From the IMG/VR virus record IMGVR_UViG_2531839027_000011: a stretch of DNA of 16,154 nt; one strand, written 5' to 3'. A program made the position numbers. This DNA is from a virus. Lineage: Duplodnaviria > Heunggongvirae > Uroviricota > Caudoviricetes. The first letter of the stretch is position 1. Each line of letters begins with the position of its first letter. Positions 6,001 through 12,000 of this stretch are shown piece after piece.

Positions 6001-9000
6001 GTTCGCCGTCACTGGGCGCAAAATAATTTTTAGGGTTAACTCCCTTCATGTACAATGCGCGCATCTCACCGACGATAACACGCGCGTCCTTCAGTGAAGT
6101 AGACGGATAGCGCCCGACAGTAAGACGTACTGGCTTACCATTCCAGCGATAACGGTACTGAAACGTGATAGTTCCTGCTGGAGTAATCCGCACACTTAAC
6201 CCGTCACCATCGGTGATTTCAGCAGGGCCAGAGTAGGGTTTTCCGTAGAGGCCTCGTAGTTTGGTGTCGCTCAGTGCCAATGCTTTATATCCTGTACACA
6301 AGTTTATAATGTATTCTGTACTCAATATGTACGCATTAGCAAGTGAACAAAACACTTTTCAACGCAAAAGAAGATAATCAACCATGAACAAAAACAAACT
6401 TACACCTTGATTTTAAAACCATAAAGACGGTATTATCAGTCATATGGTGAACAACCAAAATCAATACGCAACAATGTCCTCTTAGTTAAATGGATATAAC
6501 GAGCCCCTCCTAAGGGCTAATTGCAGGTTCGATTCCTGCAGGGGACACCATTTATCAGTTCGCCTCCATCCGTACCAGTCCGCAAAATCCCCTGAATATC
6601 AAGCCTTCCGTAGATTCACAGTTCGTCATGGTTCGCGTCAGATCGTTGACAGCCGCACGCCATGACGGGTAAAAAGTGGATAAAATAATTTTACCCACCG
6701 GATTTTTACCCATGCTCACCGTTAAGCAGATTGAAGCAGCAAAGCCGAAAGAAAAACCATACCGCCTACTCGATGGTAATGGCCTGTACCTTTATGTCCC
6801 TGTATCAGGGAAAAAGGTATGGCAGCTTCGCTACAAGATTGACGGTAAGGAGAAAATCCTGACCGTCGGAAAATATCCGCTTATGACTTTGCAAGAGGCA
6901 AGGGATAAAGCATGGACTGCGAGGAAAGACATCTCGGTTGGCATCGATCCGGTAAAGGCGAAAAAGGCTTCGTCTAACAACAATTCCTTTAGTGCGATTT
7001 ACAAGGAATGGTACGAGCATAAGAGGCAAGTCTGGTCAGCCGCCTATGCGACTGAACTTGCAAAAATGTTTGATGACGACATTTTACCTATCATCGGCGG
7101 CCTTGAAATTCAGGATATTGAGCCGATGCAACTGCTGGAAGTAATCCGCAGATTTGAAGATCGCGGGGCAATGGAGCGAGCCAACAAAGCACGCAGAAGA
7201 TGCGGCGAGGTTTTCCGTTACGCTATTGTCACCGGAAGGGCTAAATATAACCCGGCACCTGACCTTGCTGAAGCCATGAAGGGATACCGCAAGAAGAACT
7301 TCCCGTTTTTACCTGCCGACCAGATCCCGGCATTCAACAAAGCACTTGCAACATTTTCAGGAAGTATCGTATCTCTCATTGCGACCAAAGTTTTACGCTA
7401 CACAGCACTAAGAACGAAAGAGCTTCGTTCCATGCAATGGAAGAACGTCGATTTTGAAAACAGGATTATCACCATCGAGGCCAGTGTGATGAAGGGACGC
7501 AAGATTCATGTGGTTCCGATGTCGGACCAGGTTGTTGAACTTCTCACTACGCTAAGCTCCATCACTAAACCAGTATCAGAGTTTGTTTTTGCCGGGCGCA
7601 ACGATAAGAAGAAGTCAATCTGTGAGAACGCTGTACTGCTTGTGATCAAACAAATCGGCTATGAAGGTCTGGAAAGCGGTCACGGATTCAGGCATGAATT
7701 CAGCACGATTATGAACGAGCACGAATGGCCTGCTGACGCTATTGAAGTGCAACTAGCACATGCCAACGGCGGATCTGTGCGTGGGATTTACAACCATGCT
7801 CAGTATCTCGATAAGCGCAGAGAAATGATGCAGTGGTGGGCGGACTGGCTTGATGGGAAGGTGGAGTAGTTATTACAACGATTCTTATAAAAAAGAAAAG
7901 CCTTGCACATATAGCAAAGCTTTTCACTTCTCAGGATTTCTTACACCAAGAAACCATCAACAATAACAAAATGCAATTATTATATGTTAACTACATATGC
8001 ATTTCATTAAAACCAATCATAAATGCTTATCATACTTTAATTGCTATAATTGATTGCCTTCTATTTTTTCAACTCGAGTGGTTGAAACATCATTCTTAAA
8101 TCCACTCCACCATTTTCTTAGCTTATTGTTTATTGGCTTTTCAAAAAACAAATACATCATTATTGATATAAATAATGAAGCAAACAGAGCCATTACTATA
8201 AATTTAATTACACTTATAGCACCAAGACCAGAAACATTAAAGAACTTGCTCAATGTACTGATTACTATAGTATGGACCAAGTAAAATGAAAAAGAAGCAT
8301 CACCTAAAAGTATCATAACTTTATTTGATATTATTTTTGAAATAATACCACCATTAAACGAAAACACTAATATTGAAAAGGCCATTGATGGTATAAAAAG
8401 CGCATCATACTGTAATCCATTGCTATTTTGACTTTTTGCCACCATATAGACAGACATTAGGATAAAGACTACAGATGATATTTCAGCAAATGATAGAACT
8501 AAATATGACGGCTTTGACTTAAACTCAAAATCTCCGGCCTGATTGCTGCGGATTGTCTCTGCCAGCCTGCCTCGGTCAATCTCACGACCAGCCATCTTGT
8601 CCTGAACATTGAAGTAGTCAATCGGACCGAGAGCAGCCATCCCAAGGTGATAAACAAACTCACCAAACCCTGAAGGATTCTGCTGATACATCTGAGCAAC
8701 GTTGTTAGGGTCAACACCGACGCGCGCCAGTTCCTTGGCGTTGTTTTGCAGCCATGATTGCATTGCTTCTGGAGACGAGGCCGCAAGGCGTGCGCCAGCC
8801 GCTAAGGTGCCGATAGAATTGCGCTGGTCTTCGTCTGCCCACTTCATACCAGACTGAATCTTCTCTAATTGACCAGGATATTTGGTCATCAGATCTCGAA
8901 CCTGCTGTCGATCGCCGGACTGGATGGCTGCCGCATATTCTTTTTGGAATGCAGCATCCGCTTCCTGTTGCTTTGCGGCTTGAGATGTTTGAGCGACACT

Positions 9001-12000
9001 ACCAAGTCCCTGCAACGCCTGAAGGCCGATGTTATTGCGACCTGAACGCTCCATTTCGTTGTTCTGGCGAATATAGGCCAACGCCTCACTTACATCACTT
9101 GCCTTTGGCGCATTTGAGTTTTGCCCACCGATACCAGCAAGAAAACCGCCTGAGTTGATTCCTTGTTGCCAAGTAGCCATATTCCCACCTTAAAACAATG
9201 ATCCAAGACCACCGATAACACCGCCAGCAAGAGCACCAATACCAGTCCCAATAACAGGAACTGCACTACCAATCATTGCACCTGATGCGGCCCCACCAAT
9301 GGCACCTGTAGCAAAACTCTGTAGGCCTGAAGGCTTATTCGCATTTGCTGCCGATGCTGCCGCCTGCTGTTGATACAATTGGCTGACATTGTTAGCGTAG
9401 TTCTGTCCGGCGTTTGCCTGACCTGTAAGAGCACCAAGGCCGATATTTGCCAGATTGTTGTAGTTGTTCATCTGACCTGACAGCCAGTTTTGACCGAGTG
9501 TAGGTGCGATTGCTGCTAACTGGTTTCCTGTTGCTGTAGAGCCTAATCCACCCGTTGCCTCTGCTGCTGCCAGACTCTGATAGCGCGCCTGCCCTGCAAG
9601 GTCTTTATACTGCTGAGAGTTGTAATACTGGTTAAGCGCCTGACCTTGCCCCTGAAGAGAGGAAAGATTCTGCAACTGTGATACGTACTGCTGAGCGAGT
9701 GGCGTGAACGGTGCAAGGTTTTGCATGTTCGTCTGCCACATTTCACGCTGCAGTTCGATGCCCTTTTCAGTTGCGCGTGCCTGGGCTTTAGATCCGGAGT
9801 CGCTGCCGCCTTTCATATACCCATTCATGGGAAGCAATTTATTCTTGAAGCTTTCGCTAAGTACTAACATTTAATAGCTCCTCATATTTCGAACGAGGTA
9901 ATTGATAGAGGGTGATTCCTACCGGTTTTCCGTTACTCATGTACGCATCATCAAGGTGACCAACACGGGTAGCGCCAAGCAAACGGATAATTGCCCGTCC
10001 GTATTTGGTGGTGTCAGGAACCATGGTGATGCTGTTAAGGAATGGTGAGTTTTCGAGAAGCCATTTGCAGAATAATCGATGCCCTTGTAGTGCATATTCG
10101 CCACGGAATCCGGGGTCATACACCGCATGGCATTCAACAACGCTATGCCAGAAGTTACGCACTTCATGAACTCCAGCCAGCACTAATCCTTCGTAGATGC
10201 CGAGATATACCGCATCAGGCTTGATGTAGTATTTATCTCCACTGTCTACGATATTCCCCGTGTTTACCGGGTTGTTAAGGAATTCTGCAAGTTTCACCGG
10301 GTTATCGATGAGCTTTATTTCCATCACTGCTCCGCAATGATTTTGATGGTTGTGGCAGTAAACGCCGCGCCATTCGACTGAATGGTTAACGTGCTGCCAT
10401 TTGTGGCAAGAAAGCCGTCTTTATCCACGCTGAAGAACGTAGCTAACAGGATGTTGTCGGTTGTTGTTGCCGAGTTGCGACTGCTTACTAGCGTGTCAGG
10501 AACAGAACCGGAGAATGTTAGCTGCATTGACCTGTTGGCGGTTCCGCTGGGCCACGTCCCGACAATCGACAGCTTGAAGAACAAGGTTTTGTTCTCGTTG
10601 AACACAACCATCTTGTTGTTAACGGTGTCGAAGAATGGTGCCAACGTCCCGGATGACGGCGTAAGCGTTTTCAGCAGGCTAACAAGGTTGGTCGGCGCTG
10701 TCGGGATGGTTACTGATACGCCAGAGTAAACAACCTCTGACTTCTTGCGCGTAGTGGCATACTCCAGAGCATTAATGCGCGTTTCATGGTCTGAAACCTG
10801 CGATTCCAGCGACTGAACTCTGGTATCAAGCGATGCAATATCGCTTTCATTCAAGGCAATCAGTGGGTTTACGTCATGGAGTGGGCTCAACACCAGTCAG
10901 AGCCGCATGTACACGCAATAATCATGGTGAACGAAAGAAGCATTAATGGGCAAGCTGGCAAAATTGTCAGCAAATGGGTAACACTGGCAAACAATGCAAT
11001 CCCATCAAATGTTCCTCCCCAGTGGGATCTAGATTTGAAAGGTCAGCAATATTCAGAGCCTACAAAGTGTATAGGTAAACAGATTGATTACATGGCAAAG
11101 CCCGAAACTAAGTTAAATGACTTTAATAGAGAGGCGAGCAAGAGCCTATATGATTGGTCAGATGCCAACGTTTGGGGTTATTCGAATGGCTGGGCGCGGC
11201 ATGAGATAAAAAAAGAAACACTTTCTATCACTGGCTTTCATGCTGTAAGACGCATACTAAAAGCCGTTCAGGCATCAAGGAAAGACAACTACAAAGCTAA
11301 GCGACAGATACAGCGTACATTGAAACGACAAGACATAAATCGATCACCAATCACCCCGTTCCAAGCACCGTTAATTAGCAAACACGATTGGGATTTATCA
11401 GTGATAGCGGTCACCAAAGAGGCAGAGACAGAGCGCAGGGAATTACTATCCTCACAGATAATAAACTCGAACAAAGTACAAACCCACCCACTGTTAAGGA
11501 TGTTAAGAAGAGCACGAGTGAGAGCATCCAGAGCCAAAAGAGAAAGCGGAGGTTATGACCATTACTACTAGTAGTGACAGATCGTGACAAGGCGGTGCAA
11601 AAAACGACCAATAATAAGAGAGATATGCCTGCCAAACCGCCAAAAGCGCGGAGCGCGGCAAACGCCGCGAGAGGCGCAAGAAGGCGAACCTATCCATTGA
11701 AACGGTCAGAAGCGCATCGCGCTCGACGACCGAAGTCCCCACTAACACCGTTAACGAAAGATCAAAGTCTTAGAAAAAAATGACGTTTCTTTGATGGACT
11801 TCCATCCGTAAAAATCAAATTTTGAGAAAAAGTACTTATAGAAATTAATCGCTCTATAAGGATAAGTTGACGTTAGTTTAAAGTGATAAAACATTAAAGA
11901 AAAAACGTAAAATCAAATACATAAAATAAGTCACCAAGGGATCATTTTCAGAAAACAACGTCAACGTAACGTCAACTCTGTAAGAACTTTTTTGGTCACT

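Follow-up and report, generated by a model that had tools for sequence, protein, structure and literature searches.

A Reading Frame Joining Parts of a gp20-Type Ejection Protein Gene and an AT3 Acyltransferase Gene: a Probable Deletion Scar in the Sp16 Prophage Remnant of Escherichia coli O157:H7

Results

Genes and Features of the argW Locus

The window, that is, the entire stretch of 16,154 nucleotides analysed here, is the argW region of E. coli O157:H7, where a second prophage is also found at argW. The locus is Sp16, a fixed remnant of a defective prophage at argW, and it has the same position and the same genes as Sp16 of O157:H7 Sakai (intS, the hybrid ORF, gp7, DUF2824, and the needle fragment). 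Sp16 has been described as "chimeric or highly disrupted" and as showing no excision, replication, or packaging (PMC2669165, PMC3519850). The coordinates of the features are collected in Table 1.

Table 1. Features of the Sp16 Remnant in the Window
Feature	Position	Strand	Evidence and remarks
tRNA-Arg(CCT), argW	6476..6550	plus	ARAGORN
intS, P4-type tyrosine integrase	6712..7869	plus	PF00589, PF22022, PF13356; RefSeq intS; convergent with the hybrid
Intrinsic-terminator-like hairpin and T-run	7895..7925	minus	12-pair stem; between the acyltransferase remnant and convergent intS; consensus match only
Hybrid ORF	8044-9180	minus	single reading frame, 378 aa and stop
Hybrid 3' part, codons 215-375 of an AT3-family membrane acyltransferase and stop	8044..8529	minus	four TM-like helices
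Putative deletion junction, hybrid codon 217 (GAT)	8530..8532	minus	G and A from gp20 GAA, T from AT3 TAT
Hybrid 5' part, codons 1-217 of a P22 gp20/Sf6 gp12-type ejection (DNA transfer) gene	8530..9180	minus	own start codon kept
Shine-Dalgarno-like AAGGTGGG	9184..9191	minus	close 5' of the hybrid ATG; from gp20; overlaps the gp7 stop codon; read from sequence
gp7-type ejection protein gene, intact	9190..9870	minus	PF25688 P22_gp7, 5.7e-90; RefSeq "DNA transfer protein"; directly upstream of the hybrid
gp14-type gene (DUF2824)	9857..10327	minus	PF11039, 8.4e-65; phrog_651
Tail-needle (gp26-type) fragment without 5' end	10324..10860	minus	PF16532; phrog_1030 positions 83-256 of 268

The 3' end of argW (6536-6551) is identical to the attP core of Sf6 and HK620, as judged from the Sf6 attP annotation and sequence, and is therefore attL of the remnant. 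With up to 2 mismatches allowed, the window contains no second att core. Head, terminase, lysis, and regulatory genes are absent from the remnant. The tail-needle fragment is listed in RefSeq as a pseudogene "missing N-terminus"; homology to an intact relative (described below) ends at window position 10852, and the fragment marks where the P22-like segment is broken at its opposite end. The gp7-type gene is interrupted by IS1203 in four cattle isolates. The element around the hybrid is thus otherwise degraded and immobile.

The hybrid gene directly follows gp7 and gp14, as gp20 does in P22-like phages, but it is followed by the convergent intS and not by gp16. In 3 of the 3 strains checked, the ORF is uninterrupted and has one and the same RefSeq protein accession. 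Databases disagree on the name of the product: RefSeq has "phage DNA ejection protein", whereas UniRef has "Acyltransferase". A PDB sequence search with the hybrid gave no match at E <= 0.01, and a PADLOC scan of the hybrid and the neighbouring unknown ORFs matched no defence model. The promoter scan is uninformative on transcription because promoter-like sites were no commoner than in shuffled controls.

The Two Parts of the Hybrid ORF

The initial annotation had described an abrupt change of character at about 8520-8535 in a 378-aa frame, from GC-normal sequence encoding a soluble, Gln/Ala-rich protein to AT-rich sequence encoding hydrophobic helices. This description is borne out, and the switch is placed at window base 8531/8530 by a three-way DNA alignment. 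The segment 9180-8530 has a GC content of 52.1% (GC3 of 49%), and the segment 8529-8047 has a GC content of 29.4% (GC3 of 24%). The mean GC content of the window is 44%, and its lowest-GC part is 7951-8400. Residues 1-217 are rich in A, Q, and G, of a soluble type, and contain no hydrophobic segment (maximum 19-residue Kyte-Doolittle value of 0.77). Residues 218-378 are rich in S, F, I, and L, with four TM-like peaks in a hydropathy scan (226-244, 262-280, 289-307, and 327-345). The two-part pattern is not a product of chance because each half has its own strong homology (PF16928 at 7.6e-65 for the N-terminal half and phrog_3333 at 1.7e-23 for the C-terminal half).

The proposed gp20-type origin of the N-terminal half agrees with separate profile searches and alignments. 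The Inj_translocase profile (PF16928) scores 219.1 bits (cutoff of 29.7) over residues 12-217, and profile positions 1-207 of 218 are retained; phrog_917 and phrog_2534 match residues 1-217. Over these 217 aa, identity to gp20 of phage vB_EcoP-720R6 (433 aa) is 97%, and the N-terminal part is 74% identical to Sf6 gp12. Homology to gp20 stops at residue 217, whereas the full-length relatives contain 431, 433, and 491 aa. The C-terminal half of gp20 is absent from the hybrid, and the remnant, unlike P22 or Sf6, has no virion into which the protein could be packaged.

The C-terminal half had been assigned to the C-terminus of a membrane acyltransferase, and alignment places it in the AT3 family. 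Residues 218-378 of the hybrid correspond to AT3 residues 215-375, the back 43% of the gene. Residues 219-364 align to positions 224-368 of 372 in phrog_3333 (O-acetyltransferase), and residues 230-343 align to positions 215-325 of 326 in PF01757 with a score of 25.9 bits, which is under the gathering threshold of 31. Among the HMMER matches listed, full-length AT3 relatives align to the hybrid solely at their residues ~218-360. In comparison with AT3-only O-acetyltransferases (PF01757; phrog_3333, for example that of phage TL-2011b), the hybrid aligns to the last ~160 residues of proteins of 360-380 aa but lacks the first 214 residues and thus three essential motifs. The motifs R-X10-H, FFXISG, and RXXR are essential in OafA and Oac (PMC7448272). 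The intact AT3 protein of the relative carries R13-X10-H24, FFFILSG, and R-V-F-R inside its first ~95 residues; R/K-X10-H, FFXISG, and RXXR are all absent from the hybrid. By a crude hydropathy scan, in which some peaks are merged, the hybrid has 4 TM-like peaks versus 9 for the intact 375-aa protein; the AT3 domain is a ten-helix domain.

An Oac-type parentage, which the initial annotation had also suggested, did not hold up. Sf6 Oac was ruled out as the parent by sequence, with no significant similarity (BLASTP E = 0.47), and by orientation. Sf6 is likewise a P22-like phage that integrates at argW and shares the attP core, and its oac lies in the corresponding slot between tailspike and integrase; oac is co-directional with int, however, whereas the acyltransferase remnant converges on intS. 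In TL-2011b and in a 53%-identical locus (P0004), as for the parental AT3 gene, the acyltransferase gene lies just downstream of the tailspike gene and is co-directional with it. Megablast and blastn searches against phage records gave no close parent of the AT-rich half; a stretch of TL-2011b with 71% identity was the sole match. A scan of GTDB genome contigs with the C-terminal half found no relative, and a word-indexed protein search yielded nothing beyond a 101-aa fragment of that sequence itself.

Parental Layout and Junction

The intact layout was found in the IMG/VR record UViG_2545824644_000015 (L012 and L053), in which gp20, gp16, three small ORFs, the tailspike gene, and AT3 follow one another with a convergent intS adjoining. 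The encoded proteins are 491 aa (gp20), 610 aa (gp16), 846 aa (tailspike), and 375 aa (AT3). The intact AT3 gene (L012:8359-9486) differs from the 3' part of the hybrid by 3 mismatches in 488 nt (99.4% identity), and the position of intS relative to the acyltransferase is the same in the window and in the relative. Identity between the window and the relative is 96.9% for 8531-6712 and 94.9% for 8608-8531. Over gp7 and the N-terminal region of gp20, the window is ~71% identical to the relative and 92-97% identical to phage 720R6. The relative is not the direct ancestor of the hybrid locus.

Both breakpoints lie in the relative 9,010 bp apart, collinear and on the same strand, and a single 9,010 bp deletion in its layout recreates the fusion in frame. 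The interval holds the C-terminal part of gp20, gp16, three ORFs, the tailspike gene, and the 5' part of AT3. The deletion proposed in the initial annotation, which was to have removed the rest of gp20, gp16, the tailspike gene, and the 5' part of the acyltransferase gene, therefore matches a relative that has all of these in order beside intS; the list left out the three small accessory ORFs that separate gp16 from the tailspike gene and that were lost as well. The Sf6-type layout taken as the model for this deletion is correct in placing an acetyltransferase gene beside the integrase. Sf6 oac, however, is on the strand opposite to the late genes, whereas the parental AT3 gene is co-directional with the tailspike and late genes, so that an Sf6-type layout could not yield an in-frame fusion.

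In a three-way DNA comparison, the hybrid was set against the intact AT3 gene on one side of the junction and against gp20 of 720R6 and Sf6 on the other. The check for microhomology gave a single shared base, the A at 8531, which is common to both parents. The 61-mer spanning the junction is AGAGACAATCCGCAGCAATCAGGCCGGAGATTTTGAGTTTAAGTCAAAGCCGTCATATTTA, and the peptide across it contains NQAGDFEFKSK. In the other two frames, a stop codon is reached 0 or 9 codons past the junction. An IS-mediated deletion was rejected, as no IS sequence is present at the junction.

Distribution of the Fusion

The exhaustive HMMER search covered 1.84 billion representative proteins and gave 1,267 matches at E <= 1e-3. 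No native full-length family with the two-part architecture was found. Among the matches listed, the only one of hybrid length and more than 53% identical is the 99%-identical cluster of the hybrid itself, and the remaining full-length matches are acyltransferases of 340-420 aa aligned at their C-termini. The 3' part of AT3 is present in 309 of 5,426 complete E. coli genomes, always at an identity of at least 99%, and the 5' part in none of the 5,426. In 40 of the 40 matches listed, the 3' part lies inside a CDS named "phage DNA ejection protein". The fusion is restricted to one lineage: every named genome carrying it among the matches listed is O157:H7. Junction-bearing matches in IMG/VR are 100% identical. 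The fusion of gp20 to the acyltransferase is absent from the descriptions of Sp16 consulted, and literature searches gave no account of it.

Discussion

The hybrid ORF is, with a probability of about 0.93, a chimeric, pseudogene-like deletion scar in the Sp16 remnant at argW. The ancestor would have been a P22-like (Lederbergvirus-type) prophage that began with argW (attL) and intS and that carried on the opposite strand, in turn, the AT3 acyltransferase, tailspike, accessory ORFs, gp16, gp20, gp7, gp14, and gp26. A single illegitimate event, deleting ~9 kb at 1 nt of microhomology, would have joined gp20 codon 217 to acyltransferase codon 214/215, with the junction presumably in frame by chance. 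Since the junction is in frame, the reading frame opens at the start codon of gp20 and closes at the stop codon of the acyltransferase gene. With the C-terminal half of gp20 and all AT3 catalytic motifs gone, the product is predicted to be inactive both in ejection and as an acetyltransferase; any expression is probably incidental. The hybrid is ordinary prophage decay and not a new kind of protein.

A single deletion is the most parsimonious route to the fusion but is not proven, because the gp7/gp20 N-terminal region of the relative is only ~71% identical. Stepwise formation, or formation from two different elements (for example, by recombination of tandem or successive argW prophages), is unlikely. 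The mosaic identities, with the AT3-intS side nearest to UViG_2545824644_000015 and the gp7/gp20 side nearest to phage 720R6, are consistent with such a route, as is the second prophage in the window at the argW hot spot. P22-like phages are routinely mosaic, however, so that one ancestor combining both segments is expected, and the intact layout has both breakpoints collinear and in the same orientation; either route would give the same end product, to be read as a non-native scar. There is next to no likelihood that the hybrid is a native two-domain protein or an assembly chimera. It is an ordinary CDS in RefSeq, and it matches phrog_28221, a family of 378 positions, from end to end, but that family is matched at full length only by the hybrid, the intact acyltransferase matching positions 218-378 only. 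Each half is truncated relative to its own family, and the exhaustive search gave no independent member. An assembly artefact is ruled out because the fusion occurs in 309 independently assembled complete genomes.

It is very improbable that the scar has been co-opted, with a membrane-anchored N-terminal domain of gp20 blocking the ejection machinery of incoming P22-like phages (superinfection exclusion) or serving another envelope function. The unbroken ORF in 309 genomes, the retained gp20 start codon, Shine-Dalgarno sequence, and downstream terminator, and the joining of a near-complete Inj_translocase domain to four TM-like helices would suit such a role. O157:H7 is a young clonal lineage, however, so that the intactness of the ORF says little about selection, and the architecture has no homologues elsewhere by HMMER. 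The late-operon promoter region is gone, since the fragment is truncated within the needle gene, promoter-like sites are no commoner than in shuffled sequence, and no PADLOC model was matched. IS1203 is inserted in the upstream gp7 of some strains with no apparent consequence. Less probable still is the specific version in which the hybrid is expressed and held in the inner membrane by the four acyltransferase helices, and the Inj_translocase domain poisons the assembly of the trans-envelope ejection channel of P22-like phages; if true, superinfection exclusion would have been made by accident out of a deletion scar. Expression and some residual or new activity may nonetheless occur, because the intact ORF, a good ribosome-binding site, and the terminator are all kept; these are the points that run counter to an inert scar.

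The value of the deletion-scar reading lies mainly in annotation, and the hybrid opens no new biological question. The protein, which hundreds of O157:H7 genomes encode, is a chimera of two truncated genes and ought to be labelled as a fusion or pseudogene; in PHROGs it makes up a separate family of unknown function. The exact junction provides a clean lineage marker. Sp16, formerly unassignable, can now be recognized as what is left of one end of a P22-like phage that integrated at argW and once encoded a tailspike and a surface-sugar acetyltransferase.

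Origin of the Two Parts of the Hybrid ORF

The initial annotation had described an abrupt change of character within one reading frame and had assigned its two parts to a phage ejection protein and an AT-rich membrane acyltransferase. The GC and GC3 values of the two parts are listed in the table; the mean GC of the window is 44%, and the lowest GC anywhere in it is found at 7951-8400. Residues 1-217 lack any hydrophobic segment and have a high content of Ala, Gln, and Gly, whereas residues 218-378 show four TM-like peaks and have a high content of Ser, Phe, Ile, and Leu. This sharp contrast establishes that the change is real and lies where it had been reported.

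The N-terminal part was identified using Pfam. PF16928 (Inj_translocase, P22 gp20) matches residues 12-217 with 219 bits. Over residues 1-217, identity is 97% with the vB_EcoP-720R6 gp20 homologue (its first 217 of 433 aa) and 74% with Sf6 gp12 (431 aa). In the C-terminal part, residues 219-364 correspond to positions 224-368 of 372 of phrog_3333 (O-acetyltransferase), and residues 230-343 to positions 215-325 of 326 of PF01757 (AT3 acyltransferases), the latter with a score under the gathering cutoff. An exhaustive phmmer search of 1.84 billion representative proteins with residues 218-378 provided 1,267 matches at E <= 1e-3. The full-length proteins among the best 150 of these are 340-420 aa long and align at their own residues ~218-360; the closest is a complete AT3 protein (P0004, 53% identical). 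No native two-part family appears among the best 150 of the 1,267 matches, where the hybrid architecture is confined to the query's own 99%-identical cluster. Both assignments are thus borne out.

Features of the window and bases at the breakpoint (/)
Feature	Position	Strand	Remarks
Lambdoid prophage end	1-6355		bet/exo-side early genes in flank
Tyrosine integrase, left-hand (lambdoid) prophage	5111-6355	-	5' side of argW
tRNA-Arg(CCT), argW	6476-6550
intS	6712-7869
Hybrid ORF	8044-9180	-	378 aa
Last 483 nt of hybrid ORF	8529-8047	-	GC 29.4%, GC3 24%
First 651 nt of hybrid ORF	9180-8530	-	GC 52.1%, GC3 49%
gp7, DUF2824 (gp14) gene, 5'-truncated tail-needle gene	in this order beyond hybrid ORF	-
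AT-rich ORF	12241-13653	-	470 aa, ~33-37% GC
"Recombinase family protein" gene	14319-14945	+	208 aa, RefSeq name
DUF4942 fragment, short	~15280-15460
IS1203 in gp7	L058 (NZ_CP038284.1) 1991-3984		equivalent to window gp7 9190-9870
Hybrid, breakpoint			...CAGGCCGGAGA/TTTTGAGTTT...
gp20 (720R6), breakpoint			...CAGGCTGGAGA/AGCACTAAC...
Acyltransferase, breakpoint			...GTAAACTATA/TTTTGAGTTT...

Junction and Parental Layout

The hybrid ORF is a deletion scar of an ordinary kind, and the defective prophage that contains it is already known. When the junction was inspected for microhomology, the A at window 8531 was the only base common to both parents, and no IS or repeat was found there. The event is an illegitimate recombination in which the microhomology amounts to 1 nt. 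The acyltransferase frame is kept across the join (GGA GAT TTT GAG, G D F E) and the other two frames meet a stop within 0 or 9 codons; the long ORF is therefore a one-in-three outcome.

A scan of IMG/VR provided the identical junction at 4 loci, one fragment with the last 39 codons only, and one locus without the junction. The latter (L012, contig UViG_2545824644_000015) contains the full acyltransferase ORF (L012:8359-9486, 375 aa from the first ATG), which reads ...LCKLY/FEFKSKPSYLV... across the breakpoint. The intact layout was built by joining L012 and L053, both from this contig. The genes appear in the order needle (282 aa), gp14, gp7, gp20 (491 aa), gp16 (610 aa), three small ORFs, tailspike (846 aa), and acyltransferase, followed by intS on the opposite strand. 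Positions 17324-19141 of this intact relative correspond to window 8531-6712 (96.9% identity; 3 mismatches in 488 nt in the acyltransferase part) and positions 8237-8314 to window 8608-8531 (94.9% identity). The two alignments share one window end base and are 9,010 bp apart on the same strand of the intact relative. The deletion removed the part of gp20 that begins at about residue 218, together with gp16, the three small ORFs, the tailspike, and acyltransferase residues 1-214. The in-frame deletion proposed in the initial annotation is supported, with the breakpoint now at single-base resolution; its list of losses agrees with the intact layout, except that it had left out the small ORFs.

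The small ORFs are located at L012 2659-5089, between gp16 and the tailspike, a slot that holds sieA/mnt/arc/ant-type genes in P22. One has no PHROG match and the others match phrog_2384 and phrog_2651 (both function unknown).

The comparison with Sf6 holds for gene position, since oac sits between the tailspike and int, but not for strand. Sf6 oac shares the strand of int and is convergent with the tailspike gene, whereas the acyltransferase of the window is co-directional with the late genes, as it is in the intact relative, phage TL-2011b, and the P0004 locus (where AT3 comes after a tail-fibre-like gene of 860 aa). Only this orientation permits the gp20::acyltransferase frame. An Sf6-type acetyltransferase as the parent is ruled out by the opposite orientation and by the absence of significant similarity between the Sf6 protein and the remnant (E = 0.47).

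Genomic Setting

By its sequence, the window belongs to E. coli O157:H7, of which it is the argW region; the match to strains such as TW14359 and EC4115 is 99.9-100% over nearly the entire length. Two divergent integrase genes flank argW. The left-hand prophage is stx2a-associated and the element on the right is Sp16 of strain Sakai (PMC3519850). Sp16 was called unassignable ("chimeric or highly disrupted"), and neither excision, replication, nor packaging was seen (PMC2669165). At least 80% of the whole window is held by only 69 of 5,426 complete genomes, and the Sp16 part by 309; without the left-hand prophage the gene before argW is yfdC. The argW 3' end (6536-6551) is identical to the annotated attP core of Sf6/HK620, the bases beyond it also agree with the Sf6 arm, and no further copy of the core is present within the window. 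Phage record VT2phi_272 (HQ424691 / NC_028656) starts with 170 bp 100% identical to the intS 3' end (window 7700-7869), and what was deposited as "phage" may therefore include an integrase gene that belongs to the adjacent Sp16 remnant.

The P22-like fragment has a second broken edge at window 10852-10924, where the 5' end of the tail-needle gene is lost. Homology to the intact relative ends at 10852, and the edge adjoins unrelated opposite-strand DNA with ORF 10924-11571. This ORF is "hypothetical" in TW14359 (RefSeq); in PV15-279 IS1203 interrupts it, and the distal piece has the name "replication protein". Neither Pfam nor PADLOC gives a match to the 470-aa ORF. Its sole match, end to end, is phrog_13435 (function unknown), and the annotation of PV15-279 gives it a frameshift and an internal stop. 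Both the recombinase gene (so named in RefSeq) and the DUF4942 fragment are in the right part of Sp16, which suggests that the P22-like fragment is fused there to what is left of a further mobile element.

Function and Distribution

In the intact acyltransferase the first helix contains R13-X10-H24, and FFFILSG and R-V-F-R are also present. Mutagenesis has shown that the matching motifs (R/K-X10-H, FFXISG, and RXXR) are needed in OafA, OafB, and Oac (PMC7448272). None of the three is left in the hybrid. Both parental activities would be gone, and the hybrid most likely has no function. The hybrid still has the ribosome-binding site and the start codon of gp20, and a terminator-like hairpin is found downstream; the late promoter region is gone from the P22-like fragment, and promoter-like sites are not above background frequency. 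The ORF is intact in O157:H7, as would be expected if the membrane-anchored gp20 N-domain had been co-opted for exclusion, but O157:H7 is a young clonal lineage and nothing other than this intactness speaks for such a role, which appears unlikely beside loss of function.

Of 5,426 complete E. coli genomes, 309 carry the AT-rich half, always with at least 99% identity, and none carries the acyltransferase 5' half known from the intact relative. In all 40 matches listed, the AT-rich half is covered by a CDS annotated as "phage DNA ejection protein", and the named strains among these 40 are all O157:H7. In four cattle isolates (YB14-1, F1 E4, 144, 150) IS1203 splits the gp7 gene just upstream, and the hybrid ORF is unaltered. 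The hybrid protein is WP_000257010.1 (RefSeq) in the three of three strains inspected, and its UniRef cluster is named "Acyltransferase". The hybrid (378 aa) and the intact acyltransferase (375 aa) are nearly equal in length because 217 gp20 residues stand for 214 acyltransferase residues, a coincidence that probably helps the hybrid to be taken for an ordinary "acyltransferase" by automatic annotation. The main use of the hybrid is for annotation correction and as a lineage marker.
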